From: Azospirillum sp.
GTDB taxonomy: Bacteria; Pseudomonadota; Alphaproteobacteria; Azospirillales; Azospirillaceae
Direction of reading: 5' to 3'
Length of the DNA: 64,000 bases
NCBI GenBank assembly: GCA_035629155.1
Contig: DASPIO010000028.1
Location: 23,762 to 87,761 of the forward strand
Shown here piece by piece: positions 4,150 through 40,329 of the stretch. The position numbers and the translations under genes were made by a program. Under the pieces are notes generated by a model. The model had not been told where the DNA came from. It did not search any database and saw nothing but the letters and a program-made list of their open reading frames with translations. Within the stretch, counting starts at the first letter, position 1; each line of letters starts with the position of its first letter.

Positions 4150-4358
4150 CAGGCGCGGCCCTCCACGGCGGCGACCAGCGCGCGCTCCTCGGCCGTCAGG
4201 TGGGGCGAGGTCGCGCCGGTCTCGCGGATCAGCGCCGCCACCTCGCCGGCGGCGCCGACGATGCGCTCGATGCGGGTGAGGGCCGCCGCGTGCTGCCCCT
4301 TGGTGCAGCCGCGGGCGCCGATGCGCCGGATGGTTTGACGGAGCTGGTCGGTGTTCAT
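4149..4358 (-). CDS. Hypothetical phage protein (69 aa)
   Basis: ATG with an upstream RBS-like sequence; its stop overlaps the gp36 start. Confidence 0.55.
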   Translation of the reverse strand: MNTDQLRQTIRRIGARGCTKGQHAAALTRIERIVGAAGEVAALIRETGATSPHLTAEERALVAAVEGRA

Positions 4359-4749: not shown

Positions 4750-5643
4750 TCAGGCGAGCCAGGGAACGACGACGAGCTGGGCGGTGCCCTTCCACTCGTT
4801 GTCCTCGCCGTTGGCCTTGCGCTGGTTCTCCAGGATCTGGCGGCCCTTGCCCTCCAGCGACGGCGGCACCACCAGGTGCGTGGGGTTGACGCCCAGCGGC
4901 TCGCCATGGTCGCGCTTGAGGTTCTGCATGGCGGTGCGGGCGGCCTCGTAGTTCGCGTGCGTCAGGTCGGCCTTGGACCCGTGGGCGAGCTGCCAGAAGC
5001 CGAAGCCGACATTGGCGCGGCCATCGACGCCGTAGCGGTACTGCTTGCGATCGAACACGATCTCGCCGGTCGGAGCGTCCATGCGCACGAAATCGAAGCT
5101 GCGGCGCTTCTGGTAGACGATCGGCTTGATGGCCCGGCTGAGGTCCATCAGGAACCACGGCGTGCCGGCACCGGCCTGATAGTTGGAGACGGAGACCGTG
5201 CTGCCGTCCTCCGCGATCACCGGGTGATCGGTGTCGAAGAAGTACTGGCCGTCGTAGCAGGGCTTGGCAAAGCCGGACTTCAGCAGCGGGAACACCAGCG
5301 TGTTGGGGAAGTTCGCCGTCTGGCGCCCCATCTCGGTGAACATCGGCGCGTAGAGGCCGAACTTGTCGTCCTCGATGTTGTTGCGGTCGACGCCGATGGT
5401 GAGTTCCCAATCCTTGTTGCGGATCAGGTAGGACGCGGTTTCCAGGTTGTGGACGACGCGCGGGCCGATCCACTCCCGGAAGCCGGGGATGTCCTTCATC
5501 CAGCCGTAGTTCTCTTCCGAGGTGGTCGACGGCGTCTCCATGGCGACCATGTCCCACTGGGACTTGACGCTGCCGAAGCCGTTCTGGAAGGACGTCTGGA
5601 AGCCGGTGTACAGCGCGAGCAGGCTGGACGCGGTGATGAGCAT
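4750..5643 (-). CDS. Mu-like major capsid protein gpT (helper)
   Basis: MLITASSLLALYTGFQTSF, REWIGPRVVHNL, CYDGQYFFDTDHPV, GFGFWQLA motifs. Confidence 0.96.
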   Translation of the reverse strand: MLITASSLLALYTGFQTSFQNGFGSVKSQWDMVAMETPSTTSEENYGWMKDIPGFREWIGPRVVHNLETASYLIRNKDWELTIGVDRNNIEDDKFGLYAPMFTEMGRQTANFPNTLVFPLLKSGFAKPCYDGQYFFDTDHPVIAEDGSTVSVSNYQAGAGTPWFLMDLSRAIKPIVYQKRRSFDFVRMDAPTGEIVFDRKQYRYGVDGRANVGFGFWQLAHGSKADLTHANYEAARTAMQNLKRDHGEPLGVNPTHLVVPPSLEGKGRQILENQRKANGEDNEWKGTAQLVVVPWLA

Positions 5644-5656
5644 GCGGGCGGCTCCT

Positions 5657-6070
5657 TCAGATCTCGACCCAGACGCCCTGGGCGTCCACGTCGCGGATGA
5701 TGCCGGCCTGCGGACGCGCCCCGGTGTCGTCGGTCTTGGCGACCGTCTGGTCGTCGACCGCGTAGCAGGGCTTGCCGTAGTCGGCGATGGTGATGGCGTC
5801 GCCGGCGGCAGAGTTGGCGAAGCGGAAGACGCCACGCTCGATCACCACCTTCGACGGCAGCGTCGAGCCCGCCACGGTGGAGGCGCGGTGCTGGGCGCGG
5901 CCGAGCACGGTCAGCGTGTTGGTGGCCGAGGCCGGGACGGCGGCGCCGGCGGCGTTCTGCGCCACCATGGAGCCGGCGAAGACGGAGGTGTTGGCGGCGA
6001 GGTCACGCTCCATGTGTGTGAAGCCGCCGTTGCGGGCCAGGGTGTTGCGGTCGGTCGTGAGGGCGGCCAT
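5657..6070 (-). CDS. Putative capsid cement/decoration protein (DUF2190-like)
   Basis: Small A/G/T-rich protein between I and T, with CYAVDDQTV...GVWV motifs common at this position in Mu-like phages. Confidence 0.7.
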   Translation of the reverse strand: MAALTTDRNTLARNGGFTHMERDLAANTSVFAGSMVAQNAAGAAVPASATNTLTVLGRAQHRASTVAGSTLPSKVVIERGVFRFANSAAGDAITIADYGKPCYAVDDQTVAKTDDTGARPQAGIIRDVDAQGVWVEI

Positions 6071-6073
6071 CGG

Positions 6074-7213
6074 TTACGCCCCCGTCTTCTGCGCGGCGAG
6101 CGACTTCTTGAAGGCGTCCTCGGACAGGCCCATCGCGGCGCACACCGCCTTCTGCTCCGCCGTCAGCTCGCCTTCGGCCGCTTGGCGGGTGCCGAGGTCG
6201 GTGGAGCCGGGCGAGAGGATGACCGGCGCCGACGCGATCATGCGGTCGAGCAGGTCGGGGTTGGCCGAAGCCAGCGCCAGCAGGTCGCCGCGCTGGGCGG
6301 GGGTGAACTTGCCGGCCTTGATGGCGTCGTCGACCTTGGCCGTGTGCTTGTCGCCCACCAGCGAGTTGACCTGGGCGGCCAGCGTGGCGACCTGCTGCTC
6401 CAGCAGCGAGGCGCCACCCTTCAGGCCCTTGACGGCGGTGATGACCTGTTCGGCCGGCGTGGCCTCCGGCAGGCCGGCGGCGGCGGCGATGGCCTTGACC
6501 TGACCGGCCGCCGTCTTCAGACCCGTGATGGTGGCGGCCAGCTGGTCGATGGTGGCCGACGCCTCCAGCCCGGCCGCCGAACACAGGGCGGTGAGCTGGC
6601 CGGTGCCGGCCTTCAGGGTGGAGACGGCAGCAAGCGCCGTCGTCTGGTCGGCGGTCTCGGGCAGGCCGAGTGCCTCCAGGAGCTTTCGCAGAAGCTCGTT
6701 CATGGGCTCTCCGTGATGGGCCGCCAGAGCTGGCAGCTGGGGTAGCGCCGGCCGGTTCACGAGCGCGGCGCCGAGGATCCGTGTGACCGTGCCGTCCTTG
6801 GCGTGCAGGAAGGCGGGTGAAAGGAAGCGGTACTCCCTGGAGGCGACGGCTCGCGCACCGGCGTCGGTCCACTCGACCTTCGCCCAGATGCCGTCCGCGC
6901 GGGCTTCCAGCGCGGTCATCCATCCGGCGGCGGGAGCGCGCCCACCCTGGGGAGCGGCGAGGTCGAGCGCGTGGTCGTAGTCCATCGGGAGCATCCCGCC
7001 GGCAGCGGCGGCGAGCGACGCGCCGATGACCGCCTGGGCGTCCGGCAGGGTCCAGCCCGGCCGGCCGTCCGCCGGCTTGAAGGCGCCGGCCGGCATCAGC
7101 TGGACCCACTCCGGCGGCTTGCCGGAGGAGACGTCCAGGGCGCCGGTCAGGACGGCGCTGGCGAGCGCAACGTCGGACGCAGCGGTTCCGGTGGTGGGAA
7201 CGCGGGTGGGCAC
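6074..7213 (-). CDS. Mu-like prohead protease/scaffold gpI; probable internal in-frame scaffold (gpZ) start at 6703
   Basis: EWVQLMPAG, PMDYDHA, GIWAKVEWT, EYRFLSPAF, ALVNRPAL motifs. GGAGAG precedes the internal ATG (MNELLRKLLEALGL). Confidence 0.95.
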   Translation of the reverse strand: MPTRVPTTGTAASDVALASAVLTGALDVSSGKPPEWVQLMPAGAFKPADGRPGWTLPDAQAVIGASLAAAAGGMLPMDYDHALDLAAPQGGRAPAAGWMTALEARADGIWAKVEWTDAGARAVASREYRFLSPAFLHAKDGTVTRILGAALVNRPALPQLPALAAHHGEPMNELLRKLLEALGLPETADQTTALAAVSTLKAGTGQLTALCSAAGLEASATIDQLAATITGLKTAAGQVKAIAAAAGLPEATPAEQVITAVKGLKGGASLLEQQVATLAAQVNSLVGDKHTAKVDDAIKAGKFTPAQRGDLLALASANPDLLDRMIASAPVILSPGSTDLGTRQAAEGELTAEQKAVCAAMGLSEDAFKKSLAAQKTGA

Positions 7214-7299: not shown

Positions 7300-7415
7300 G
7301 TCTCCCCCGTCCGGGCGGTTGGTGCCAGACGGGGTATCACCCTTGCGCGCGCGATACCGATTGCGGGGCGTTTGAACGGGGTTTTGAACGCCTGCGGGTG
7401 GCGGAGGGTCCCGGA

Positions 7416-15701: not shown

Positions 15702-16076
15702 TCAGTCGAACAGGCTGGGTGCCTTGGGGTCGACGGCGCGGACCTCAGCATTGACCTTGCGGACGTGCCGCTCGGTGCAGCCGAGTTCCATGGCAATCTG
15801 ACGCGTTGTGCCAGTGGCGCGCAAGATGTGTTGCTTCAGGGCTTTGGTGGACTTGGCGTTCGGCACGTCCACCTGTTCGCCAGGGTAGATGGCGGCGAGC
15901 ACCTGCGCCGCCTCAAGCCCGATCAATTCCACCAGCGGCTGGCCGAGGCGCGGGTTGGCCGGAACCTTCCGCTTTGTGCCGCCCCACGCCTGCACGAGCT
16001 TCCACGCCGCGTCGACGTGGCCGGCGCGGGCGAGGTCGCCCAGGATGCCGGGCAAGTGGACGCGCTCCTCCGTCAT
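15702..16076 (-). CDS. Mor/C-family late transcription activator (helper)
   Basis: LIGLEAAQVLAAIYPGEQVDVP plus C-terminal HTH (TRQIAMELGCTERHVRKV); lies between gemA and lysis as in Mu. Confidence 0.88.
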   Translation of the reverse strand: MTEERVHLPGILGDLARAGHVDAAWKLVQAWGGTKRKVPANPRLGQPLVELIGLEAAQVLAAIYPGEQVDVPNAKSTKALKQHILRATGTTRQIAMELGCTERHVRKVNAEVRAVDPKAPSLFD

Positions 16077-16549
16077 CCTTTGGCCTCGGCCTTCTGGGCG
16101 CGGGCGTGCATGGCCTTCAGCGCCTCGATCACCTTGGCCGCCTGGGCGATCGGCAGGCGGCCCATCTGCTGACCGGTCACCTTCGCGATGAAGGCGTCCA
16201 TGGCCGGAACGCCCCGGCTCTTGACGGTACCGGCCTGGTGCAGGTCGATCCACAGCGCGCGGATCTTCCCGAGCTGCGGCGTATCGGCGTAGCGCGACGT
16301 CGGCCGGCCGGCGGCCTTGCCCTTCGGTTGGCCGGCGCCGAGGGCGCGGAAGCCGTCGAGCAGCGCCCGGCGCTCCGCCGTGGTCAGTTCGGCGGAGCTG
16401 TCCGTCCGCCCGTTCGAAGCCTGAAGGACGCGCGCCCGGTAGCAATCATCGGCGAGCGCCAGTTCCTTCTTCATGGCGTGGATGGCCGCCAGCTCCCTCT
16501 TGCGCTGCTGGTCACGATCCGCGCCGGATGGTTTGACGGGAGTTCGCAT
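16073..16549 (-). CDS. gemA: GemA / Mu gp16 (DUF1018)
   Basis: LAAIHAMKKELAL.DD.YR...GR.DSSAELT, QLGKIRALW motifs. Confidence 0.92.
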   Translation of the reverse strand: MRTPVKPSGADRDQQRKRELAAIHAMKKELALADDCYRARVLQASNGRTDSSAELTTAERRALLDGFRALGAGQPKGKAAGRPTSRYADTPQLGKIRALWIDLHQAGTVKSRGVPAMDAFIAKVTGQQMGRLPIAQAAKVIEALKAMHARAQKAEAKG

Positions 16550-28090: not shown

Positions 28091-28226
28091 CCCTACGACT
28101 ATCGATATGTCTACCGTCGTATCACGAGCATGCTTCGCATGCAACGAGCATTTTCGATGTGGGAATCCTTCCCGGTTCGGCCCACGCTTGAAGGGCGCGC
28201 GCATGTGCAAAGGCGACGGGATAACA

Positions 28227-28787
28227 ATGACTTACGACAACCGGGAAGGGCCGGACGAAGTGGGAAGGGCTCTTCCCACTTACGAGGCGGAACTGGGAAC
28301 ACGGATTTCCCTCGTCATCGACCTGTACGATCTTAAGGCCGACGCGGCACGGGTCGCGGATGTTACGCCCGAGATGTTGAACCGGTACGTGCGCGGACAG
28401 CACAAAATACCCTTCACCAACGCCGCTCGGCTGGCTTCAGCCAAAGGTGTCAGTCTTGACTGGCTGTGGAGCGGAGAAGGACCAATGCTTCTGCGTGATC
28501 GCGTGCACGACTCGCCGCCAGCGGCGGTCGAGTCATTCGACCTTGCGTTGATGGGCAATCTCGTGTCCGGCCTGATGGCATTCCTGCAAAGGGAGAGCCT
28601 GGATCTAGATCCGGAATACATTGGTCGGGCGGTGACCCTGCTTTACATGCTGATGGAGCGCGAGCGCCGCGACACCACCCCGGAGGATCGGCCGGATCTG
28701 TGGGTGGAGGGGCACCCCGTGGACATCGCAAACGATAAAATCCTGGCGGAAACCGTACGCCTCGCACTCGGGCGGTTGCGTAGGTAG
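28227..28787 (+). CDS. Prophage repressor (XRE HTH; no S24 peptidase domain)
   Basis: AARVADVTPEMLNRYVRG...LASAKGVSLDWLWSGEGPM; divergent from ner at the left end, as for Mu c. Confidence 0.85.
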   Translation: MTYDNREGPDEVGRALPTYEAELGTRISLVIDLYDLKADAARVADVTPEMLNRYVRGQHKIPFTNAARLASAKGVSLDWLWSGEGPMLLRDRVHDSPPAAVESFDLALMGNLVSGLMAFLQRESLDLDPEYIGRAVTLLYMLMERERRDTTPEDRPDLWVEGHPVDIANDKILAETVRLALGRLRR

Positions 28788-29277: not shown

Positions 29278-29514
29278 ATGAAGCCGGAAGACCGTCCGAC
29301 ATCCATGGTTTCTTTTCCGCTAACAATAGTTGGCGTGCTATTTCTTGCCGGAGGCGGGATGATGCTAACCGGCACTCCGCCGAACTTCATCGGCTCGATC
29401 GGCGCGGTGGGGATCGGGCTAGCCCTGATCGGCTTGGCCGGCATCAACACGCGCTTGGCCGAGGTGATCCACGAGTTGCGCCTCATCCGCGCCGCCGCAG
29501 AGAGGGTGCCATGA
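29278..29514 (+). CDS. Small two-TM membrane protein (left-end moron)
   Basis: Two hydrophobic segments; coupled to the next gene. Confidence 0.6.
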   Translation: MKPEDRPTSMVSFPLTIVGVLFLAGGGMMLTGTPPNFIGSIGAVGIGLALIGLAGINTRLAEVIHELRLIRAAAERVP

Positions 29515-30044: not shown

Positions 30045-30217
30045 GTCAAACCATCCGTCCGTCAGCGTACAATGCGGCGATGTCCGTATGGTTTGACAGA
30101 ACGGAGTGGACGCGTCTCGAAAACCTAGGCATCACAACGCCTGCACGTCCCACTCGATCCCCCAAAATCCCACCGTATCCCGGCCCCCTATCCCGTCAAA
30201 CCATTGGTCTCTCTACA
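30045..30217 (-). repeat. Helper left end (attL): three transposase-binding motifs (30045-30054, 30088-30097, 30195-30204) and terminal CA
   Basis: GTCAAACCAT / ATGGTTTGAC / GTCAAACCAT; read inward, the end is TGTAGAGAGACCAATGGTTTGAC. Confidence 0.9.
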
Positions 30218-30955
30218 CCGGTGCGTCGATCGCCTCGGGCGTCAGGCGGAAGGTGCCGAAATGCATGGCTACGCTGGTGCGGGCACCCAGGTCCTCGTGC
30301 GCCGCCACCGCCTCCTCCGGGTTCATGTGCTGCGGCGCCATGAACCAGCGCGGCTCGTAGGCGCCGATGGGCAGCAGCGCCACGTCGATGCGCGGGAAGC
30401 GGGCGCCGATCTCCTTGAAATGCGGGCCGTAGCCGGTGTCGCCCGCGAAGTACAGCGTGCCGGCATCCGTCTCCACCACGAAGCCGCCCCACAGCGTCGT
30501 GTTGCGCCGGAAGGGCGCGCGCGCCGACCAGTGCTGCGCCGGCACGAAGGTGACGCGGCAGCCGGCCGGTCCCCGCGTGCTCTGCCACCAGTCCAGTTCC
30601 TCGACGTGCGCGAAGCCGTCGCCGTTCAGCAGCGGCCCGTTGCCCAGCCCCACCACCGCCCGCGGCCCGAAGCGCCGGGCCAGCGCCGCCAGCGACGGCC
30701 GGTCCAGGTGGTCGAAGTGCCCGTGGCTGACCAGCACGAGGTTCGGGTCCGGCAGCCGTTCCAGCGGCACGCCCGGCGGGCGGGCCCGCTTCGGCCCCAG
30801 CCGGCCGAACGGACCGGCCCGTTCGGAGAACACCGGGTCGGTGAGCAGGCGAAGGCCCGCCGCCTGCACCAGGAAGGTGGCGTGGCCGACATGGGTGACC
30901 GCCAGCGCGCCCGGTGCCGGGGGTGCCGGGACCGGCTGCGGCGGGTCCTCGACGC
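30218..30955 (-). pseudogene. Middle fragment of a host MBL-fold metallo-hydrolase (NAPE-PLD/RomA-like), cut by both elements
   Basis: VTHVGHATFLVQ, LLTDPVFSERA, SHGHFDHLD, FAGDTGY, LPIGAYEP, MHFGTF motifs. The reading frame is broken at 30217 (helper end) and at 30956 (satellite end). Confidence 0.95.
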
Positions 30956-31000
30956 TGTAGCGCGCCGAATGGTTTGAATTGGCGCGCTGGATGGTTTGAC
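30956..31000 (+). repeat. Satellite right-type end: terminal TG and two tandem ATGGTTTGA sites (30969, 30991) 22 bp apart
   Basis: Read directly from the sequence; the 22-bp period matches Mu R1/R2 spacing. Confidence 0.88.
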
Positions 31001-31053
31001 AGCGCTGACACCCCGTTTCAGGCTTACCGGGAATTGAAGAAGCCTTGGCGCTT

Positions 31054-31467
31054 CTAGGCTAGCGCCGGCAGTGTCGCATCGTCGCCCAGGTGCGCAATTT
31101 GAACATTCCTTCCCGGCGGCTTCCCCCCTGGAGGCTCGATGATAACAACGCCGTCTTTCGTATGATAATGGATAATCAGGACTGTGCGCGCACATCTGGC
31201 GGGATTGGAAAGACGGGACAGGGCTTGCCGATTGTACTTTTTCAAAAAGCGAAAGCATTCACGCATATAGATCCTGTATTCTTCCTGAATATCTTTGCGG
31301 AGCTGTTCCAATGCCGTTGGGCATGGCGGGTTGCCGCACAGATCGCTTTCCCACTTGGCAAATACATTATTCAAACGCGATGAAAGGTCGGCCGCCACTT
31401 CCCCTGACAGCAGGCGCGCGGTTACCTTCTGTGGGCGCTCCCCTGTGCCGTCATACGCGTGCTGCAT
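31054..31467 (-). CDS. Satellite cargo, hypothetical protein (137 aa)
   Basis: AGGAG upstream of TTG ATG; lower GC. The ORF track labels it '+', but the listed translation (MQHAYDG...) reads on the minus strand. Confidence 0.6.
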   Translation of the reverse strand: MQHAYDGTGERPQKVTARLLSGEVAADLSSRLNNVFAKWESDLCGNPPCPTALEQLRKDIQEEYRIYMRECFRFLKKYNRQALSRLSNPARCARTVLIIHYHTKDGVVIIEPPGGKPPGRNVQIAHLGDDATLPALA

Positions 31468-31518
31468 CAACGTCCACTCCTGATTGGTTCGTTATGCCCT
31501 CCCGCTCGACAAGAGGGC

Positions 31519-31546
31519 CGCTCGGCCGGATCTGGCCGGCCGAGCG
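31519..31546. repeat. Perfect 11-bp inverted repeat just downstream of the satellite chaperone stop
   Basis: CGCTCGGCCGG-ATCTGG-CCGGCCGAGCG; no U-tract, so a terminator role is uncertain. Confidence 0.6.
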
Positions 31547-31554
31547 CGCCGGAA

Positions 31555-32079
31555 TCACTTCGGCTGCTCGCCGTTGACGAGCTGCCAATAGGCGTCCTCC
31601 ATCGCCTTGCCGATCACGCGATAGCCGGCCATGGCTTCCACGAGGTCGGGCGAGAAGTCCGGCAGCGTCGAGAAGAAGGCATTCCAGCCGTGGTTGTCGG
31701 GCAGCCCCACCACCACCTTCCGCAGCAGCTCCGTGCGAAAGCCCTTGTGCTGGCTTTCCAGCTTCTCGACTTTGGCGTTGAGTTCCTTCAGATCCTTTTT
31801 CGCCTTGGCGGCGTTGCCGTCCGACGCTTCCAGGGCGAGTTTCGCGGCCTCCTGCTTGGCCTCCGCGATCTCGCTGACGCGCTGGCCCAGCTCGGCGATG
31901 AGCTGATCGTGCTCGCTGTCCGGCAGCAGCATGAACGACAGATAACAGGTCTTTTTGACCTGTTTCCCACCCACCCAGCCGCCGCTGGCACGCTTGGCCG
32001 TTTCCGGCCAGTTGAACATGACCGGCCACACAAACGTCATTTCGGTGGGGGCTGCAAGAGTAATCTTAACCTGTTCCAT
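31555..32079 (-). CDS. Satellite tail assembly chaperone G (paralogue of 713-1207), no frameshift site
   Basis: Shared motifs TF.WPV...WPE.AK, KTC...F.L.PDSE.D.L, LLR.VVVGLPDNH.W, LP.FS.DLVEAMA, W.LVNG. Ends GAG CAG CCG AAG TGA. Confidence 0.9.
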   Translation of the reverse strand: MEQVKITLAAPTEMTFVWPVMFNWPETAKRASGGWVGGKQVKKTCYLSFMLLPDSEHDQLIAELGQRVSEIAEAKQEAAKLALEASDGNAAKAKKDLKELNAKVEKLESQHKGFRTELLRKVVVGLPDNHGWNAFFSTLPDFSPDLVEAMAGYRVIGKAMEDAYWQLVNGEQPK

Positions 32080-32102
32080 TTCCGCTCTCACTCGTTCTTT
32101 AG

Positions 32103-32540
32103 TTAATCCATCAACGAATTGAAGTATTCTGCAATGTCTCTCCATTCGCCTGTCAAAGACTGCTTTGCTGATGCGATCAGGTCATTGATGTACACCTCAA
32201 CTTCGAACCTGACATTCTTTCTTTTGTTTTGGTACAGCGCGCTCAGTCGGCGCCTCTGCCAGCGCTTTGTTAACATGGACCCGAGAAGGCGTTCGGTGTC
32301 GTCAATGTGCGCCACCAGTATTCTCTCAATGCTTGCTCGCAGATCGGAAAACAGAGGATGTCTGGCATCAAAATGTTCTGATGATCCAACCAGTTCAGAA
32401 AACGCATTGCGATTGCTGATATCCCAGCGTTCCAGCACGCTGCGGATTGCGTCAGCTCCGTTTGTCGGCATAGCGGGGCGCATTATCCGAAACTCGACGC
32501 TGTTGCGGTTCTGGATCGGTATTCGGCCGCGTGCGGGCAC
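32103..32540 (-). CDS. Satellite cargo, hypothetical protein (start uncertain)
   Basis: AT-richer ORF between the Ntn-like gene and the chaperone; no recognised family. Confidence 0.55.
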   Translation of the reverse strand: MPARGRIPIQNRNSVEFRIMRPAMPTNGADAIRSVLERWDISNRNAFSELVGSSEHFDARHPLFSDLRASIERILVAHIDDTERLLGSMLTKRWQRRRLSALYQNKRKNVRFEVEVYINDLIASAKQSLTGEWRDIAEYFNSLMD

Positions 32541-33145
32541 CCAAAGCGGTCGTAATACTCGCTATAATCAGGGTAAAATCCTGCTATTTTTTGATCGGCG
32601 CCATGCTCATTTACTTCGGTAAGATGCATGACGCCACCAATGCACATTGGTTGACTAAATTTCTCCTGTACCTTGTGCTGCCCAAGCGCCATCTTTACCA
32701 TCATGGCCTCATCGGCATGCGCGGGAAGGCGCACACCCGGCGCCATTCTGGGCGCAAGATGAATGCCCGGCTCCATCGTGGTCGCCTGGACAGGCACACC
32801 ACCGGCGCGAAGCTTGTACCTCGTGCTCTGCGGCGCCTGCTTGTTGGCGGACCAGCACATCAACGTGATTTCACCACCGGACGCTTCGAAGAATTCATCA
32901 CCGATACGCTCGGGGACGCCGCGAATAACGATATCCACATGCTCTATGCTTTCGACGCGCGCCAGTACAGGCCCAAGGACTTGAAGAAGCGCATGTGTTC
33001 CGCGCATGGAGAATGCAAATCGGCCGCTCTCAGAGACGAAACACTTTCGTTCGCAAAGGCCAACCGGCATGTTGCCCCGGTATATCATCGTGTCCGTCAG
33101 GCACAAAATGCGGTCGCTTCCCACGAATACGTTGCTGACGCTCAT
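32483..33145 (-). CDS. Proteasome-beta/HslV-like Ntn-hydrolase-fold protein
   Basis: After Met removal: Ser1, Asp17, Lys33, Gly48 and C-terminal IGGVMHLTEVNEHG, matching beta-subunit catalytic spacing. ATGA overlap with the TMP stop. Confidence 0.65.
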   Translation of the reverse strand: MSVSNVFVGSDRILCLTDTMIYRGNMPVGLCERKCFVSESGRFAFSMRGTHALLQVLGPVLARVESIEHVDIVIRGVPERIGDEFFEASGGEITLMCWSANKQAPQSTRYKLRAGGVPVQATTMEPGIHLAPRMAPGVRLPAHADEAMMVKMALGQHKVQEKFSQPMCIGGVMHLTEVNEHGADQKIAGFYPDYSEYYDRFGCPHAAEYRSRTATASSFG

Positions 33146-34530
33146 TTAATTGCCTCTTCGAACGCGGAGACGACTTCGGGGCAGGTCAAGAATTCGTCCG
33201 AGAACTCACACTCGGCCATAACCTTCTCAAGCTCGTTGGACAGATCCTTCAGATTGTCCGTCTGGGTCACGACACCGCCACTGCCGTTGGCGGGCGGGGC
33301 GTTGTCCTGCTTCGTCAGGTCGTTGAGTTCGCGTTGCAGCTCGATCCGGCGCTTGACCAGCGCCTCATGCATGGCGGGAACGCCGCTCGTTTTCTCGGGA
33401 AGGCGCCCGTACTCCCGGTCTATCCGCTCGATCTCCGCCCGCAACAGCGACGCCCTGTCCGACTCGATGCCGGCGCGAAGCGCCTTGGCCGCGTCACTGA
33501 CCTTGCCCGCAACCAGCTTGGCAATGTCGCTCCGGGCGAGGCGGTCAACGTAGGCGTCCCAGGCCACGCCAGCGTCATGCAGCGCGGCGCCCCACTCGCT
33601 GCGCATGGTCTGGGCCGCGCCACCGTACCGCTGGCGCAACGCCTCGATGGCGACGTTCAGCGCGCCGGCCTTGTTGCCGTGGTCAGCCAGCATGCGCACC
33701 TGGCGCTCTTGCTCGACCGACAGGAAGTTCAATTCCGCATCGAGTCGCTTGACGCCCTCGCCCCCCTTGCCGAGAGCGTCCCCCATCTTGGCGGCGGCGG
33801 CCGGGATCGTGTAGCCCAGCACCGCCGCAACATCCGGCGCGAGTTCCAGGATGCTGCGGAACAGCTCCGGGTCACGGAGGTCGGGGTTGCGCACCAGCTC
33901 CAAGGTGGACTGGTATGCTTCGCTGCGGGACGCCCCTGCATGGATCGCGACGTTCGCCATGTCGCGGAGCTGGCCGGCCGTGATGCCGGCCTCATTGCCC
34001 ATCGCCTTCAGGATGGACGCGAGTTCCCGCCCCTCGGCACCGATGCTCGCCATGCGCGCGGCGACGATGCCGATCGGCGCGGCGATCACGGCGGCGGCGG
34101 CGCCGATGCCCAGGATGCGGCCCGTGATGCCGGGGAACGCTTGGAGCAACTGCCCGCCCTGTTGCATCAGGACGGTGAACGGGCTGGCGCCGGACGACAG
34201 CGATGCCGCAACGTCGCTGGCCGTGTAGCTCAGCGCCTGGATCTGCTGCGTGCTGAACCTCGTCTTGGTCGCCAAGTTGTCGTTGGCGCTGGCCGCACCG
34301 CCGAACGCCGCACCGGCCCTGTCGGCGGCGCCGGCCGCAGCGCCCAGCGATTGCTTCGCCTCGTCCGCCAGTGTGTCCAGGCGGCCAAGCGCCTGTGAAA
34401 GTTGCTGGCCAGCTTCCCGGCCAGTATCACCAAGCTTGGACACCTCGCCCGTTGCCTTGCGAAGCTCCACTACGAAGTCTTCGGCTTCCGCAGTCAGCTT
34501 GAGGACGACGTGTTCTGCAACCTTGGTCAT
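33142..34530 (-). CDS. Satellite short tape measure protein (462 aa)
   Basis: QQIQALSYTASDVAASLSSGASPFTVLMQQGGQLLQAF lambda-family TMP motif; N-terminus similar to the helper TMP start at 304. Confidence 0.88.
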   Translation of the reverse strand: MTKVAEHVVLKLTAEAEDFVVELRKATGEVSKLGDTGREAGQQLSQALGRLDTLADEAKQSLGAAAGAADRAGAAFGGAASANDNLATKTRFSTQQIQALSYTASDVAASLSSGASPFTVLMQQGGQLLQAFPGITGRILGIGAAAAVIAAPIGIVAARMASIGAEGRELASILKAMGNEAGITAGQLRDMANVAIHAGASRSEAYQSTLELVRNPDLRDPELFRSILELAPDVAAVLGYTIPAAAAKMGDALGKGGEGVKRLDAELNFLSVEQERQVRMLADHGNKAGALNVAIEALRQRYGGAAQTMRSEWGAALHDAGVAWDAYVDRLARSDIAKLVAGKVSDAAKALRAGIESDRASLLRAEIERIDREYGRLPEKTSGVPAMHEALVKRRIELQRELNDLTKQDNAPPANGSGGVVTQTDNLKDLSNELEKVMAECEFSDEFLTCPEVVSAFEEAIK

Positions 34531-34647
34531 GACGATACTCGCTCGCGATTGGGCCGGCGCTGGACTGCTAGACCAGCCCAGCGCCGGCCGCACTCCGATG
34601 CGGTAAGGAGAGCCGGCCCCCGCACCGGATGCCGCTGGGATGCCCGG

Positions 34648-35568
34648 TTACAGGTACGGGGACACCACCAGTTCGGCGGTGCCGGCCCACTCGTTGGGCG
34701 CCGCGACCGTCTGTTCGTTCGGCGCCGTGCCCACCGTGACCAGCTTCATGTTGTTCTTGATGAGACGCAGCCCGTCGCCTTCCAACTCGTCCGGCACCAC
34801 GAGGATGTTGGGGGTAAGGCCCAGCTTCTTGCCGTTCTCGCCCCGGATGCTCTTGATCGCCACGCGGGCCGCCTCGTAGTTGTCGTGCGTCAGCGGCGCC
34901 TTGCTCGCATAGGCGAGCTGCCAGAGCCCGAAGCCGGCGTTGGCGCGCGCGCGGACGCCGTAGAAATACTCGTCTTTCCAGAAGACGTTGTCGTCCGTGG
35001 CGGCGTCCTGCCTCTGGAACTCGTACGGCAGCCGCTCCTGAAACACGAGGGGTTTGACCGGCTGGCCGGCGTCCATCAGGAACCACGCCGGCCCGGCCCC
35101 ATCCTGATAGTTGCTGTAGGACGTAGGCTGACAGTCGATATCCACGACATGATCAGTGGAGAAGAACGGCTTGCCGTCGTAGCACAGCTCGGTAAACCCG
35201 GCTGCCAGAAGCTCGTACACCAACTGGTCGGGGTGCTTCGCCGCGTCGGCGCCCATCTTCTCGTACAGCGGGCCGAAGACGCCGTACTGGTCATCTTCGA
35301 TGGCCGTACGGGGAACGCCAATGGTCACCTCAAACGTGCGGTTCTTGATGGTGTAGCCCGCGACTTCAAGGTTATGGATGATACGCGAGCCGATCCATTC
35401 CCGAAGCTGCGGAAGTTCCTTCAACCAACCATAAGCTTCTTCGCCCGTCGCGCTGTTTGTCTTCATGGCGATTTTCAGGTACGTGCTTTCGACGCCCTTG
35501 AAGCCCTTGTTGAAGGAGGTCTTGAACCCGGCGAACATGCCGGCGAGGTTGGGGGCGGTGATGAGCAT
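34648..35568 (-). CDS. Satellite Mu-like major capsid protein gpT (306 aa)
   Basis: MLITA...F.GF.TSF, REWIG.R..HNLE, CYDG..FF.TDH, GFG.WQLA..SKA.LT..NYEAAR; divergent paralogue of 4750-5643. Confidence 0.95.
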   Translation of the reverse strand: MLITAPNLAGMFAGFKTSFNKGFKGVESTYLKIAMKTNSATGEEAYGWLKELPQLREWIGSRIIHNLEVAGYTIKNRTFEVTIGVPRTAIEDDQYGVFGPLYEKMGADAAKHPDQLVYELLAAGFTELCYDGKPFFSTDHVVDIDCQPTSYSNYQDGAGPAWFLMDAGQPVKPLVFQERLPYEFQRQDAATDDNVFWKDEYFYGVRARANAGFGLWQLAYASKAPLTHDNYEAARVAIKSIRGENGKKLGLTPNILVVPDELEGDGLRLIKNNMKLVTVGTAPNEQTVAAPNEWAGTAELVVSPYL

Positions 35569-35577
35569 GGCTGTCCC

Positions 35578-36543
35578 TTACAGGTTCTTGGCGTATTCGG
35601 CCGGATCGTGTCCGAGGGCCGCGCAGATGGCCTTCTGTTCGGCGGTAAGGCGCCCATCGGCGCCCGAGTTCGGATCGGGCGGCCGGCCCCCCGGCACCAC
35701 CTCACGGGCGAGGTTGCCGAACACGGGCGGAGCGCTGGCGGCGAACTGGTCGAAGCTGGCCGGGTTGGATCGGCAGAGGACGAGCCCCCACTCCCGCTGG
35801 GCCGGTGTCATCTTGCCGGCGCGGATCGCGGCGTCGACCTTGGCCGTCGCCTGCTCCTCCGAAAGGTTGGTGCGCATGCTGGCGAGCTGCGTCGCGGCTT
35901 CATCATAGAGATGGCGCGGCACGTAGAGGGACGGGTCGGGCACGGCGGCGGCCGTCGCCTTCTCGCTGGCGTCCTTGACCAGCTTCGTGACGGCCTCGAT
36001 CACGGCCGCTTCGTCGCTGGTGTCGGGCAGGTTCAACAGCGCGCACAAGCGCTTGATGGTTTCGGGCGACATGGGCGCTCCCATACTGGCAAGGGCCTTG
36101 AGTTCGAAGGCCGGGTTGTTGACCAGGGCGGCCCGAAGAATGCAGGTGACCGCGCCTTCCTTGGTGTGCCGGAAGACGGGGGACACGTAGCGGTACTCCC
36201 TGGCCGCGATCTTGGCAGCGGCGCGCTGCGTCCACTCCACGCGGCCCCAGATGCCATCAGGGCGGGCCTCAAAGGCCGCGATCCAGCCTGCGGCGGGCGC
36301 CTGTCCACCGTGCGGGGCGGCGAGGTCAACGGCGTGGTCGTAGTCGATCACCGGCTTGACCGGACCGGCCATCGTCAGGGACGCGGCGATCACCTGTTGC
36401 GCGGCGGCCATGCCGGGAAGGGACCAGGGGCCGCGACCGTCGCGGCCCTTGATGGTGCCGTAGGGCAGAAGCTGCACCCAATCCGGCGGTGCGGCGGGGA
36501 GTTCGGAAGAGAAGGAGGCGAGAGCGATCAGGGGATCAGTCAT
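35578..36543 (-). CDS. Satellite prohead protease/scaffold gpI; internal scaffold start at 36072
   Basis: DWVQLLPYG, PVIDYDHA, GIWGRVEWT, EYRYVSPVF, ALVNNPA. GGGAG precedes the internal ATG (MSPETIKRLCALLNL). Confidence 0.93.
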   Translation of the reverse strand: MTDPLIALASFSSELPAAPPDWVQLLPYGTIKGRDGRGPWSLPGMAAAQQVIAASLTMAGPVKPVIDYDHAVDLAAPHGGQAPAAGWIAAFEARPDGIWGRVEWTQRAAAKIAAREYRYVSPVFRHTKEGAVTCILRAALVNNPAFELKALASMGAPMSPETIKRLCALLNLPDTSDEAAVIEAVTKLVKDASEKATAAAVPDPSLYVPRHLYDEAATQLASMRTNLSEEQATAKVDAAIRAGKMTPAQREWGLVLCRSNPASFDQFAASAPPVFGNLAREVVPGGRPPDPNSGADGRLTAEQKAICAALGHDPAEYAKNL

Positions 36544-36910
36544 TGCTAATATCCCCATAGATCTCGCGGCGCACTTTCCTTACGTGGCGTTCAGTACATC
36601 CCACGGCCTGTGCGACGACACGCGTTTTCGCGCCTTCCATCGCCAATATCAGTTCCTTCTTGGAACCAGCCGGCGGCGGCAACACCGGGATGTCAATCTG
36701 TTCTCCAGGATACATATTTCCTATTATTTTGGCGTGCTCCAGTCCGACAATCTTTGCGATCTTGGATCGTTCCGAAGGGCTCGCGGCAAATTTCCTCTTA
36801 GTGCCGCCCCAAGAAAGGCCAAGTTTTATTGCCGTTTCGTATGATGTCGCCCGCGCAATACCCGCCAAGAAGGGAGGAAGCCTCTTGATCCTGTCATCAG
36901 TGATCGCCAT
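36536..36910 (-). CDS. Satellite Mor/C-family activator (paralogue of 15702-16076)
   Basis: WGGTKRK, YPGEQIDIP and GCTERHVRKV shared with the helper activator. Start placed at ATG 36910 by alignment; the track's GTG at 36952 overlaps the predicted -10 box. Confidence 0.88.
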   Translation of the reverse strand: MAITDDRIKRLPPFLAGIARATSYETAIKLGLSWGGTKRKFAASPSERSKIAKIVGLEHAKIIGNMYPGEQIDIPVLPPPAGSKKELILAMEGAKTRVVAQAVGCTERHVRKVRREIYGDISND

Positions 36911-36948
36911 AGCCTTGACGTAGCCCCCCGGCATCGGAATTGGTTCCG

Positions 36949-36995
36949 ACACTAGGGGGACGGAGAAGCGTCTATCGACGCGGAACTAGTTCCCC
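36949..36995 (-). promoter_or_regulatory. Satellite late promoter: dyad GCGGAAC-TA-GTTCCCC (36980-36995) plus -10 TAGTGT (36949-36954)
   Basis: Same dyad and 25-nt spacing as the helper late promoters. Confidence 0.7.
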
Positions 36996-37067
36996 TTTGT
37001 CGGGGGAGCTGAGAGATATCCAGCTTTGATGAAGAGGAGCGGCCGATACGCCCGGCCGATTGCCGCC

Positions 37068-37092
37068 CGTTTGAACGGGGCTTTGAACGCCT
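37068..37092. repeat. Tandem TTTGAACG repeat shared with helper 7369-7393
   Basis: CGTTTGAACGGGGCTTTGAACGCCT vs CGTTTGAACGGGGTTTTGAACGCCT, 24/25 identical. Confidence 0.85.
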
Positions 37093-37251
37093 CTGGGGCG
37101 TAGGGCGCACCCACGCTACCGGAAAACGCCAGAACGCACCAGCGGGCTTCCTGTGGGCTTCCAGGGCGGGGCACCCGGCAGCCACCTCCAATGCGAAACG
37201 CCCCGCCGGTAGACCCGGCGGGGCGTTGGTGTCGGCAGCGCGGCGAGGCGT

Positions 37252-37584
37252 CTACGCCTCGCGGGCGTGCCCGCCAGCGCCAACCGCGCGCTCCATGATC
37301 GTATCGACCTTCTCCGTGACTAGCTCCAGCATGGCGATCCACTGGCCCCGCTCGGTGGTGCCCATGATCATCGCTTCAATGGCGCGCAGTCCGGCCTTCA
37401 CCTGCATCAGGTCGTCGCCCAGGCTGTGTTCTGCCTCGCCAGCGACGTAGCCGGCCATGCCCCTCCTACGCGCCTTCCCCATGATGGACGTGAGTTCTTC
37501 GATCACCGCTTCTCTGACCGCGCTCCCCCGCTCCGCGCTGTTCTTGAGGAAGATCACGTTGTTTCCGGTGTTGTCGTGGGCCAT
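37252..37584 (-). CDS. Satellite early hypothetical protein (110 aa)
   Basis: AGGAGG upstream of ATG; helical ORF downstream of the Bro-like gene. Confidence 0.6.
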   Translation of the reverse strand: MAHDNTGNNVIFLKNSAERGSAVREAVIEELTSIMGKARRRGMAGYVAGEAEHSLGDDLMQVKAGLRAIEAMIMGTTERGQWIAMLELVTEKVDTIMERAVGAGGHAREA

Positions 37585-37691
37585 ATTCGAAGAGCCTCCT
37601 ATGGGTTCGCCCGGTGGCACGGTGGCGGGGCACGGTTTTCCAGGCCAAGCGCCCCGCCACCACCCGTCGCGGGCGGTGGGGTGGTAGGGAA

Positions 37692-38216
37692 TCACGATCC
37701 GGCGATGTCGAGGATGCGACGCGCCTTCTCGATGGTGACCGTCAGTTCCATGCGCACGAGGTTGGTTGTGGGGATGCCAGCCCCCGCCTCGCCCATGTCC
37801 AGGCCCGGCGGGATCGGCGGGGCCTCACCCTCCGGCCCGAAGGTCGTGTAGAGCCACCGCAGCACCCCAACGGCGTGGGCGGAGCGACTACGGGCCACCA
37901 TCACCTTCGCGGCAGGGATGGAAAGAAGGCGGGTTGCGGCGCCTCTCCCGTCGTCGATCTGGCGCAGTAGGACGGCGCCCGGCTCTCGCAGTTCCGGGAA
38001 GGTTGACGCGGCATGGTCCACCGACTGCCTTGCCCAACTGGCGCCGGCCGCCCGCATCAGGTCGTTGCCGAGGACGTAGGTTGTGCCGTCCACCGAGAAG
38101 ACGCGGACGGGGGCCGCACCACAGTAGAGGGTGCAGACAGGCGGCAGGCGGGCGTTGTCGGCTGGCACCTCGGGCCGTCCTTCGGCGGGGGCCGCTGGTG
38201 TGCGGGGATCGTCCAT
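37692..38216 (-). CDS. Bro-N / antirepressor-like protein
   Basis: VRVFSVDGTTYVLGNDLMRAAG...LLSIPAAKVMVARSRS.HAVGVLRWL pattern. Confidence 0.7.
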   Translation of the reverse strand: MDDPRTPAAPAEGRPEVPADNARLPPVCTLYCGAAPVRVFSVDGTTYVLGNDLMRAAGASWARQSVDHAASTFPELREPGAVLLRQIDDGRGAATRLLSIPAAKVMVARSRSAHAVGVLRWLYTTFGPEGEAPPIPPGLDMGEAGAGIPTTNLVRMELTVTIEKARRILDIAGS

Positions 38217-38244
38217 CTACTGCTCCAAACTGCGGTTGCGTTGG

Positions 38245-38315
38245 CCCCATGCATGGGGTAATTTGCCCCAGATTGGGCGCCGTTGCAATGGCAAAATGCG
38301 CCAACGTTGGGGTAA
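38245..38315. promoter_or_regulatory. Three operator-like dyads between divergent regulators
   Basis: CCCCATGCATGGGG (38245-38258, perfect), CCCCAGATTGGGCG (38266-38279), CGCCAACGTTGGGG (38299-38312). Confidence 0.65.
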
Positions 38316-38323
38316 ATCGCACC

Positions 38324-38560
38324 ATGATTACGGGTGACCAAATCCGGGCCGGCCGGGAACTGCTCAACTGGTCTGCCCGCGTCTTGTCTGAGCGGGCAGG
38401 CGTGGGGCCGAACACGGTGCAGCGCATGGAAAGCGCCGGAGCGGCGGTGCCATCAGGTCTTGCCGCCAACCTGGACAAGGTGCAGAAGGCATTAGAGGCG
38501 GGTGGGATTGAGTTCCGGGACGGCGGGTGGGTGCGTAGGTCACCGCAGAACGGCGCGTAA
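38324..38560 (+). CDS. XRE-family HTH regulator (satellite repressor candidate)
   Basis: MITGDQIRAGRELLNWSARVLSERAGVGPNTVQRME...LEAGGIEF, a common alphaproteobacterial XRE pattern. Confidence 0.88.
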   Translation: MITGDQIRAGRELLNWSARVLSERAGVGPNTVQRMESAGAAVPSGLAANLDKVQKALEAGGIEFRDGGWVRRSPQNGA

Positions 38561-38645
38561 GACGTGCTACCGATCACCAATGCGAGGGTGTCAACGCCAA
38601 AGTGATGCACCTTAACCACCGGCATCACTGTGGTAAGGTGCGCAC

Positions 38646-38843
38646 ATGGCTGTGAACCCGGATACCACCGTACGCAAGGTCGTCTCGCTTCCCAAAGAGT
38701 TGTGGGAAGAGGTGAGCGACTATCGCTTTGATAACAGATTGGGCACGGAAGCGGACGCGCTTCGGCGTCTGATCCAACTTGGATTGGATGCCGCCAAGGC
38801 CAGTCCCCGCGATCCTGGCCGCGCACCGTCGCGGAAGCGCTAG
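38646..38843 (+). CDS. Ribbon-helix-helix (CopG/Arc-like) protein
   Basis: RKVVSLPKELWEEVSDYRF...TEADALRRLIQLGL. Confidence 0.8.
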   Translation: MAVNPDTTVRKVVSLPKELWEEVSDYRFDNRLGTEADALRRLIQLGLDAAKASPRDPGRAPSRKR

Positions 38844-39291
38844 TCGCTCCCCAAAGCAAGCGAGGCGGGACCGCGCCAGCGGCCCCGCCTCGTAGTGTCT
38901 GGCACCCATGCGGAGGGTTGGGAGACTGGCGTCAACGGACGCCACGCCCCACCACGTTGCCACACCAGCGCCCGCCCGATGCCTCGGAACGAGTTCCGCT
39001 TGGTGGGAGCCGGCGGCAGGCTCCATCTACAACCGGCGCGCGATCCCGAGACGGCGGGCCGGAACCGGAACCCCTTCCCACTTCCGGACGGATCTTTCAT
39101 CGCGCGATGGTTGTGACGGAAACGCAAGCCACTGCAATAACAAGCTTTTTTGAACTGTAGCCTTCCCAGTTTGACTGGAAACGCTAGCTTCCACTTCCGT
39201 CCCACTTCCGTAGCCGAACCGGGACCCGGCCTACGCGCCACATCCCTTGCAAATCTTGGCTTTAGCTGCGTTTTAGTGCCGCCTCCGTTCA

Positions 39292-39462
39292 GTCAATCCA
39301 TACGTCTCCCGGACACTTTCGCGCGTTGCGCCGCATGGTTTGGCGGAAAATTCCGGTTGTGCCCCTAACCCTATGATCCAATGCGCCGTTCATCCCATCT
39401 GATCCCCGAAAATCCCACGGTATCCCGGCCCCCTATCCTGTCAAACCATTGGTCTCTCCACA
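39292..39462 (-). repeat. Satellite left-type end: three transposase-type sites (39292, 39335, 39440) and terminal CA
   Basis: GTCAATCCAT / ATGGTTTGGC / GTCAAACCAT in the same orientations as the helper, spacings 43 and 105 bp vs 43 and 107 bp. Last 62 bp are 58/62 identical to 30156-30217. Confidence 0.92.
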
Positions 39463-39612
39463 GACGCGCTCCGGCCAAGGCGCCCAGCCGCGGTGCGACC
39501 AGAAACGCAGCAGGTCGCCCGGGCCCTTGTCGGTCGACTGGAAATGCGGCGGGTTGAAGAACCGCCGTCCGTCGCAATGGTCGGAAACCGGGAAGCGCGC
39601 GATGCGGGCCAT
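39463..39612 (-). pseudogene. N-terminal fragment of the interrupted MBL-fold hydrolase
   Basis: MARIARFPVSDHCDGRRFFNP...DLLRFW...WPERV, the usual N-terminus of this family; joins in frame to 30950. Confidence 0.92.
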
Positions 39613-39648
39613 AGCGTTCCTACCGAGGCGTTCCTGCCGAAAAACGGA

Positions 39649-39681
39649 AAAAGCCCCTCGCCACGGGGGAGAGGGGCTTTT
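39649..39681 (-). terminator. Intrinsic terminator after clpP
   Basis: AAAAGCCCCTC...GAGGGGCTTTT inverted repeat with A/T tracts on both sides. Confidence 0.7.
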
Positions 39682-39705
39682 CACCGTGTCCCGTGCCGGG
39701 CCGGA

Positions 39706-40329
39706 TCAGGCGAGCTGGTCCATGCCCTCGATGATGTGGGTGACGATGCCGTATTCCTTGGCCTCGTCCGCCATCATCCAGTAGTTCCGGTCGGTGTCCT
39801 TCGACACCCGTTCCACCGACTGGCCGGTCTCGCGGGCGATGATCTTGTTCAGGCGCTCGCGCATCCGGATGATCTCCTTCGCCTCGATGGCGATGTCGGT
39901 CGCCCGGCCACCGGTGCCGCCCAGCGGCTGGTGGATCAGGAAGCGGGTGTTCGGCAGGCAGAAGCGGTTTTCCTTCTTCGCCGCCAGGAAGATGTGGCAG
40001 CCCGCCGAGGCCACCCAGCCGGTGCCCAGCATCTTCACGGGCGCCTTCACGAAGCGGATCATGTCGTGGATCGTGTCGCCGGCCTCCACATGGCCGCCCG
40101 GCGAGTTGACCACCACGGTGATCGGGTCGTCGCTCTCGTGCGCGAGCGCCAGCAACTGGGCGGTGACGACCTGCGCCAGCTTCATGTCGATCTGGCCGAA
40201 GATCAGGACCGTGCGCGCCTTGAACAGGGCCTGCTGGACCGCGGCGAAGGGAGGCTGACCGTTTTCCTTCTTCTCGTCCGGCTCTTTGGGTTCTTCGTCG
40301 TCGAACCGGGTGTATCCGGCGTGCGCCAT
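39706..40329 (-). CDS. clpP: ATP-dependent Clp protease proteolytic subunit
   Basis: INSPGG-like VNSPGG, GWVASAG (catalytic Ser), RFLIHQP (His), DTDRNYWM. Confidence 0.95.
   Translation of the reverse strand: MAHAGYTRFDDEEPKEPDEKKENGQPPFAAVQQALFKARTVLIFGQIDMKLAQVVTAQLLALAHESDDPITVVVNSPGGHVEAGDTIHDMIRFVKAPVKMLGTGWVASAGCHIFLAAKKENRFCLPNTRFLIHQPLGGTGGRATDIAIEAKEIIRMRERLNKIIARETGQSVERVSKDTDRNYWMMADEAKEYGIVTHIIEGMDQLA

Follow-up and report, generated by a model that had tools for sequence, protein, structure and literature searches.

Among the phage satellites described so far, those close to the locus reported here include the cf-PICIs, small chromosomal satellites that encode their own HK97-fold capsid protein together with a protease/scaffold and take the remaining virion parts from a helper phage. 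P4 (with Sid) and the SaPIs (with CpmA/CpmB) offer a similar disproportion between a satellite of ~9-15 kb and a helper of >30 kb. The satellite families known to us (P4-like, PICI, cf-PICI, PLE and PICMI) use site-specific recombination, and we know of none that exploits transposable phages. In a 64,000-nucleotide stretch of an Azospirillum sp. contig (the window, to which all positions refer) we analysed a pair of head genes (Mu-type I and T, 34648-36558) that lies within an element bounded by Mu-type ends and next to a Mu-like siphophage prophage. With a probability of roughly 70%, these genes form the head module of a non-autonomous Mu-like element that is a phage satellite of the adjacent prophage (the helper). 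The satellite status is well supported, and we regard the element as a natural mini-Mu, non-autonomous and with a head module of its own, that presumably exploits the neighbouring Mu-like phage.

The comparison with cf-PICIs holds for the head genes and ends there: cf-PICIs have a tyrosine integrase, a primase/replication module, a portal, head-tail connectors, a small terminase and an HNH gene, whereas the window element has none of these (Pfam/PHROG scans of twelve element open reading frames (ORFs) found no integrase, replication module, portal, small terminase, HNH or connector genes), would move and replicate by Mu-type transposition and would have to borrow the portal and the terminase as well. 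Late-gene cross-activation recalls P4 (P4 delta/P2 Ogr there, a Mor/C-type activator and a shared promoter block here). P4 and the SaPIs, however, reshape the capsid protein of the helper via small accessory proteins, whereas the window satellite supplies a differing capsid protein; a P4-type integrase, primase (alpha), Sid/Psu/Delta and Cpm were absent among its Pfam/PHROG matches. Laboratory mini-Mu/Mud elements, which have Mu ends with or without A/B, are moved in trans by a helper Mu and are packaged by headful from the left-end pac, find a natural counterpart in the window element as regards ends and dependence, but they are engineered without head genes and use full-size heads, while the natural family described below keeps T, usually I and often a tape-measure-like (TMP-like) gene. 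Complete Mu-like phages share this end structure and possess homologues of I, T and Mor/C, but measure 35-42 kb. The literature that we searched, in which subscription journals are thinly covered, neither singles out compact capsid-bearing elements nor reads them as satellites, and holds no description of Mu-like/transposable satellites; the compact family is apparently undescribed.

The limits of the element were established from its termini, its target site and the interrupted host gene:

30956..39462, minus strand: whole satellite element, 8,507 bp, Mu-type, without transposase genes
39463..39467, minus strand: left copy of the target-site duplication, 5 bp, GCGTC on the minus strand
30951..30955, minus strand: right copy of the duplication, the same pentamer GCGTC
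39393..39462, minus strand: satellite left end, with transposase-binding-type sites; its first 70 nt resemble the helper left end
30956..31005, plus strand: satellite right end, with two adjoining ATGGTTTGA sites

Read on the minus strand, the element runs 5'-TGTGGAGAGACCAATGGTTTGAC … GTCAAACCATTCGGCGCGCTACA-3' (termini of the TG…CA type). An MBL-fold hydrolase ORF (minus strand, start near 39612) reads to …GAGCGCGTC and is then split by the TGTGGAGAGACCAATGGTTTGAC of the satellite; past the other end (…GTCAAACCATTCGGCGCGCTACA) GCGTC is followed by GAGGACCCG… and the hydrolase ORF continues in frame (…WPERV, then EDPPQPV…). ATGGTTTGA(C) sites occur three times at the left end and twice, adjacently, at the right end, and a left-end site CCAATGGTTTGAC is found at 39440-39452. 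Because the TG…CA termini, the 5-bp duplication and the repeated end sites occur together, the satellite is seen to have entered the MBL-fold hydrolase gene by Mu-type transposition; we infer that the left end also holds a putative pac region. The size of 8.5 kb given in a preliminary description of this DNA corresponds to the 8,507 bp measured here. An integrase-type island bounded by a 70-nt direct repeat (30148-30217 and 39393-39462) was also considered; one of the two copies is the helper's own left end and, as the true boundaries are the TG…CA termini with their 5-bp duplication, this reading was dropped. In run X2 (a metatranscriptome assembly, possibly containing DNA) the start of one contig coincides with 30956, and a second contig exits 39462 into a flank unlike that of the window, which independently confirms both termini and shows at least one further insertion context. 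Pfam/PHROG scans and homology to the helper detected no MuA, MuB, portal, terminase, MuF or tail-tube genes in 30956-39462. Since the element has no MuA/MuB of its own while the ends and the duplication are present, it is a non-autonomous member of the Mu-like transposable elements.

The head module consists of two genes, the second of which contains a structural addition:

35578..36558, minus strand: gene I, head maturation protease with a nested Z-like scaffold (PF10123 Mu-like_Pro, E 2.7e-71, full length; phrog_328)
34648..35568, minus strand: gene T, major capsid protein, HK97 fold, 306 aa (PF10124 Mu-like_gpT, E 4.9e-113, full length)
34696..34749, minus strand: predicted β-hairpin holding an 11-aa insertion (codons 274-291 of T; AlphaFold model)

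Gene I encodes 326 aa from its first start codon (321 aa from 36543, the public gene call), and Asp72, His75 and Ser126 are invariant in the alignment; by sequence it can be assigned to the Mu gpI protease/scaffold family, with a predicted protease activity. The preliminary description had proposed an internal scaffold of 164 aa (start 36072) against 209 aa in the helper (start 6703), and both values were recovered: the internal in-frame ATG at 36072 is preceded by GGGAG, that of the helper at 6703 by GGAGAG, and in the alignment both coincide with the start annotated for the Mu scaffold Z (183 aa in SfMu). The junction between the genes reads TAA, GGGACAGCC (9 nt), ATG, so the earlier remark that T begins 9 nt after I, with no cement gene between them, can be read directly from the DNA. 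Equally, the C-terminal insertion ascribed to the satellite capsid was found to be 11 residues more than in the helper T, near the C-terminus and within KLVTVGTAPNEQTVAAP. Structure prediction of the capsid protein, suggested earlier as a check, gave an HK97 fold (pLDDT 82, pTM 0.81; Foldseek TM 0.80 to the JBD30 procapsid major capsid protein and 0.74 to the Mu capsid) in which an additional β-hairpin is predicted with confidence; its two strands (274-279 and 286-291) follow the last helix of T and precede the last strand. Given that satellite and helper are only 41% (I) and 49% (T) identical, the satellite I-T is a second module that has diverged from the helper one, and did not arise by recent duplication.

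The adjacent prophage and the segments through which the satellite is linked to it are as follows:

4750..7213, minus strand: helper head module, with I (6074-7213, 379 aa), a gpD-like cement gene (5657-6070) and T (4750-5640, 296 aa)
30148..30217, minus strand: helper left end, the prophage terminus supplying the TAG that ends the truncated MBL ORF
36953..37160, minus strand: late-promoter-like non-coding block of the satellite, common to the helper region upstream of its gene I
36536..36952, minus strand: satellite Mor/C-type late transcription activator (phrog_836, E 2.2e-12)

The helper is a complete-looking Mu-like siphophage with its genes on the minus strand, among them MuA (24880-27054), MuB, small and large terminase, portal, MuF, I, cement, T, adaptor, neck and terminator. 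The window begins inside this prophage, the right end of which lies beyond it, and a lookup of helper proteins aimed at reaching the rest met one that was unrecorded and another that led to a 984-bp contig only. Between the helper I and T the preliminary description had placed a DUF2190-like gene. The encoded 137-aa protein (5657-6070) has no Pfam match of its own, and a sequence search against the PDB gave none either, leaving only the fold search informative; homologues carry the annotation DUF2190 or lambda head decoration protein D, and the AlphaFold model (pLDDT 92) is nearest to the cement/decoration proteins of HFTV1, Pam3, T1, YSD1, TW1 and lambda (gpD), with probabilities up to 1.0 and E-values of only about 1e-2. 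Homologue labels and fold search agree with the earlier assignment, and "cement gene" is a fair description.

Helper and satellite are inserted in the same MBL gene in the same orientation, the helper left end starting at 30217 with TGTAGAGAGACCAATGGTTTGACGGGATAGGGGG…, 738 bp from the satellite right end. Their left ends (39393-39462 and 30148-30217) are 90% identical over 70 nt, with a second inner site 148 bp further in for the satellite and 150 bp for the helper, and ~210 nt upstream of the satellite Mor-I-T genes align with the region upstream of the helper gene I. The core of this block, GCGTTCAAAGCCCCGTTCAAACG, is found at 37068-37090 in the satellite and at 7369-7391 in the helper; in its 23-nt form, GCGTTCAAA(G/A)CCCCGTTCAAACG, it occurs at only these two sites in 64 kb (0 expected by chance). 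An Rfam scan of the whole window gave no match, so this conserved block does not correspond to any known RNA. Considering that protein identity between satellite and helper is only 40-50% (e.g., 40% between the satellite Mor/C-type activator and helper ORF 15741-16103), the non-coding similarity is selective. A shared left end and promoter block would be expected if the helper transposase, the late activator and (by extension to pac) the terminase recognise the satellite. Besides these segments, the end-site motif (C[GC][AG]ATGGTTTGAC) recurs with 1-2 mismatches at three positions within the helper that are remote from its ends, 317-329, 4327-4339 and 16525-16537. For a small membrane-protein gene just inside the helper left end (29278-29514), a homologue with 45% identity is located in a related compact locus, at its far end (L004, 8538-8831), which suggests an accessory module moving between helper-type and satellite-type elements.

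Metagenomic depth provided a coarse view of the state of the element in situ. In soil metagenome run X1 a 9,000-nt contig, Logan contig SRR7003763_54847, is identical to window 30727-39726, and its depth (469) is ~3x that of the helper contig (162; 23000-30655), with short host contigs on both sides at 117-198; these are contig means reported by the assembler, not read profiles. The helper depth was slightly over that of the lowest host contigs. The X1 assembly showed no branch at the satellite termini, compatible with many differing low-depth junctions (as replicative transposition or packaged copies would give), although other explanations fit too.

We reason that, upon induction of the helper, its MuA/MuB would copy the satellite by replicative transposition, and that late activators (the C-like one of the helper and/or the satellite's own) may then turn on the satellite I-T. 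The satellite capsid protein and scaffold would assemble on the helper portal, after which the helper terminase could recognise the helper-like left end and package a headful, helper tails being attached to the filled heads.

The window element belongs to a family. The nearest T proteins in a collection of 5.8 billion proteins are 55-72% identical to the satellite T, and the eight insertion-bearing T genes checked by hand (that of the window and those of seven relatives) all lie in compact elements without portal or terminase, flanked by differing, unrelated host genes. The usual gene order is c repressor, MuA (~700 aa), MuB, a 91-aa gene, GemA, a small activator-like gene, I and T, with or without a TMP-like gene, as in loci L003 (Roseomonas genomospecies 6), L006/L007, L013, L014 and L016. 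Own MuA and MuB are present in L003, L006, L013, L014 and L016. In L004, which resembles the window element, A/B were not seen, and L012 (Tistlia consotensis) has only a protein with the MuA N-terminal DNA-binding domain. L003 and L006 (~8.1 and 9.05 kb) have their own terminal inverted sites, GGGAATTATYCTGCACTG, a motif of transposase-bearing relatives that found no match in the window; where identified (window, L003, L006), the end sequences differ among members.

To appraise how common such elements are, we scanned the GTDB (one genome per species) with a capsid alignment and classed the 80 best T loci by marker proteins:

23/80 loci: full phages (portal, MuF, I, cement and T in order)
34/80 loci: compact, with MuA/GemA a few kb upstream of T and no portal/MuF within 10 kb
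6/80 loci: probably compact, on short contigs
8/80 loci: neither marker set
9/80 loci: too short for judgement

The tail markers were taken from the helper only, which makes the lack of tail matches weak evidence; a firmer basis for compactness is given by the loci whose terminal repeats are clear, from which sizes of 8.1 (L020), 8.8 (L024), 8.7 (L053), 8.1 (L072) and 9.4 kb (L075) were obtained. Automatic repeat detection in 23 compact loci returned mostly noise, and only long, clear repeats were kept; the seven clear-ended relatives and the window element together span 8.1-9.4 kb. As all family loci were found via T, its presence is given by construction, and I was detected in most. The hosts are Alphaproteobacteria, with some loci in Beta- and Gammaproteobacteria, while a scan of IMG/VR recovered mainly 32-44-kb full phages and few compact elements. 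Mu-like regions in bacterial genomes tend to keep head genes (PMC5488378).

Several traits recur within the family. The head-gene order T, (cement), I, the reverse of the usual one, was seen in L023, L024, L052, L060, L066, L069, L071, L072, L095 and L099, compact elements that come mostly from Rhodobacterales. A stand-alone MuA N-terminal domain protein of ~190 aa (HTH_Tnp_Mu_1), with no full transposase, is encoded in L012 (7523-8101) and L075 (7665-8237). The late regions of L003 (11039-11461), L014 (8523-9014) and L004 (7769-8083) contain a second, truncated c-repressor-like gene, the L004 product being 34% identical to part of the helper repressor in the window (28107-28787); such genes are candidate dominant-negative anti-repressors that could induce a helper. 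Satellite-type and full-phage-type T occur together in the isolate Tistlia consotensis USBA 355 (L032/L033 and L049/L050), where the satellite-type locus is present in two copies and two contigs bear T of the full-phage type along with a cement gene; this isolate possibly holds a culturable helper-satellite pair.

The preliminary description had framed the locus as a satellite beside its helper, and this framing, like its sequence observations, stands: it is backed by the Mu-type termini and duplication, the helper-like ends and promoter block, the conserved family and the excess depth. Its further proposal, that a short scaffold, a missing cement gene and a C-terminal insertion imply a small head, does not follow, for none of these cues is diagnostic. 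Mu/SfMu and JBD30 have T=7 heads with 415 capsid subunits (PMC11915804, PMC11445458). In these ~37 kb phages I is followed directly by T with no gene between, which deprives the I-T adjacency of diagnostic value; the optional decoration protein of JBD30 is encoded after T and is of a differing, Soc-like type. The scaffold part of I, measured as the stretch after a conserved asparagine, is 174-185 aa long in seven satellite-family proteins, and in six full phages it reaches 184 (B23, 35 kb), 200 (P1), 205 (RC1), 210 (SfMu), 217 (JBD30) and 226 aa (helper), the differences arising from the copy number of a ~30-aa repeat. Satellite-family scaffolds are thus at the short end, but overlap the full-phage range. 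They cannot be a general size determinant either, because L007 has T and no I, and a search for I in compact loci left five more without a match. A cement gene, for its part, is carried by some compact elements (L058, L069 and L071).

The T insertion is of greater interest. Among 82 T proteins compared, the C-terminal segment measures 11-12 residues in all those of full phages (23/23) and in the helper, RC1 and P1, whereas 25 of the 57 T proteins that are not from full phages have an expanded segment of 15-31 residues; among the MuA/GemA-linked compact elements it is never expanded where a cement gene is present. As the insertion, which is conserved, correlates with the absence of the cement gene, a hairpin serving as a built-in substitute for cement explains the pattern no less well than a size switch would. 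A smaller shell built from the satellite capsid protein is a tentative proposal, to which we give somewhat less than even odds; were it true, the capsid protein with its clade-specific β-hairpin would be a more likely determinant than scaffold length. It is favoured indirectly, by the small heads that P4, SaPI and cf-PICI satellites make and by the narrow size of the clear-ended elements (only 8.1-9.4 kb). The headful ratio is ~0.35 in P2/P4 and 80α/SaPI1, and by analogy a T=4-like shell would hold about 1/3 of the helper headful, ~13 kb, enough for the element with flanks and too little for the helper genome. The most elaborate version, in which a variant T with a hairpin both replaces cement and reprograms the shell to a small T number, across a widespread class of mini-Mu satellites that replicate with a Mu transposase of their own or of the helper, so that only an 8-9-kb element fits, often with a re-sized tail, seems to us unlikely.

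The competing account is that the satellite has its own capsid genes but forms normal T=7 heads, which we consider doubtful. Its packaged DNA would then be the element plus ~30 kb of host DNA, as in laboratory mini-Mu elements, which are packaged in full-size helper heads, and the capsid gene would be kept for another reason (to divert or poison helper assembly, to make cement-independent capsids, or to evade defences that sense the helper capsid protein). Several observations suit it: JBD30 and Mu, both T=7, have the capsid proteins nearest in fold to the satellite T, the I-T adjacency and a T of ~305 aa reproduce the Mu/JBD30 arrangement, scaffold length overlaps that of full phages, and the hairpin tracks cement-gene absence, not element size. 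Yet the restriction of clear-ended elements to 8.1-9.4 kb across hosts and 50-72% T identity suggests a size ceiling, and mini-Mu elements need no capsid gene of their own in order to be packaged, hence the long retention of T calls for a capsid-specific benefit; moreover, all well-studied satellites known to us that alter or encode capsids make small ones. Two further readings deny the element a life as a particle-spread parasite. That it is the decaying remnant of a second Mu-like prophage, with I and T as functionless leftovers of deletions, would account for the absence of transposase, portal, terminase and most tail genes, and for a GC content (53-68%) below that of the host (~70%); it is hardly credible next to intact termini and target duplication, listed ORFs without any disruption, a compact architecture shared by dozens of genomes at 50-72% protein identity and differing chromosomal sites, ends and a promoter block that match the resident helper while the proteins do not, a depth ~3x the helper's and a further insertion context seen in a separate sample. 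That the host keeps it, as an anti-phage island sabotaging the assembly of Mu-like phages or as a capsid-derived compartment, agrees with its lack of packaging genes and with the representation of its genes in two soil metatranscriptome assemblies, and satellites commonly double as defence islands; we hold it to be highly improbable, as Mu-type ends copied from the helper left end are understandable in an element to be mobilised but not in a purely defensive one, and the chromosomal sites vary and bear target duplications.

The satellite reading itself has points to its disadvantage. Packaging, the use of the helper portal and head size are inferred from sequence, and at only 41-49% identity between satellite and helper T/I the fit of the satellite head to the helper portal is putative. 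As it lacks MuA, the satellite can integrate in a new cell only where a helper supplies the transposase. Mu target immunity is expected to discourage a second insertion near ends bound by the same transposase, and two Mu-type insertions 738 bp apart are awkward in this respect; with the helper right end outside the window, the match of the ends is one of left ends only. The depth excess in X1 could reflect the presence of the element in several strains. Finally, as to a small head, T=7 phages either share the features that were cited for it or have values overlapping with them, and some family members lack I.

The rest of the satellite consists of a putative early region and of genes downstream of T:

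38324..38560, plus strand: small HTH_3 regulator, repressor-like, divergent from the main operon (Pfam HTH_3, E 7.5e-6)
37692..38216, minus strand: 174-aa early protein, situated where relatives have MuA/MuB; 57% identical homologue in L004
37252..37695, minus strand: homologue (blastp clustering) of the 91-aa protein, the gene of which lies between MuB and GemA in transposase-bearing relatives
33142..34593, minus strand: short tape-measure-like protein, 483 aa (PF06791 TMP_2, E 3.8e-24; phrog_24)
32483..33145, minus strand: 220-aa protein, conserved beside the TMP-like gene
31555..32145, minus strand: 196-aa protein, 44% identical to a 182-aa helper protein (713-1261)

A 65-aa gene lies on the plus strand, like the HTH regulator, and besides the TMP_2 gene there are four further ORFs, the one for the 196-aa homologue of the helper protein (tail-assembly-chaperone-like by position only) among them. 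The proteins of 138, 145, 147, 174, 196 and 220 aa had no usable Pfam/PHROG match, even at E up to 5. The TMP-like gene after T is also kept in L004, L006/L007, L053 and L075. Directly after T, many family members encode such a protein (449-1070 aa, TMP_2/TMP_3), as at 33142-34593 in the window, 4576-5964 in L004, 6335-7684 in L007, 11074-13380 in L053 and 11003-14215 in L075; L012 11113-12109 also belongs to these TMP-like/chaperone-like genes, the window (31555-32145) and L012 carrying a chaperone-like one. A short tape measure of its own could allow the satellite to alter tail length, for which we know of no precedent among satellites.

If the satellite reading is true, the element exemplifies a new way of phage parasitism, Mu-type transposition with a borrowed transposase, borrowed ends and probably a borrowed pac site, combined with a capsid protein of its own. 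It would add many elements to the catalogue of mobile DNA, since at least 34 of the 80 nearest capsid-gene loci in reference genomes are compact, and would offer an experimental system (one capsid gene, one hairpin, one helper) for how the size of an HK97-fold shell is set and how it becomes independent of cement. Since flanking host DNA is always taken along in headful packaging of the Mu type, these elements could in addition transduce efficiently.

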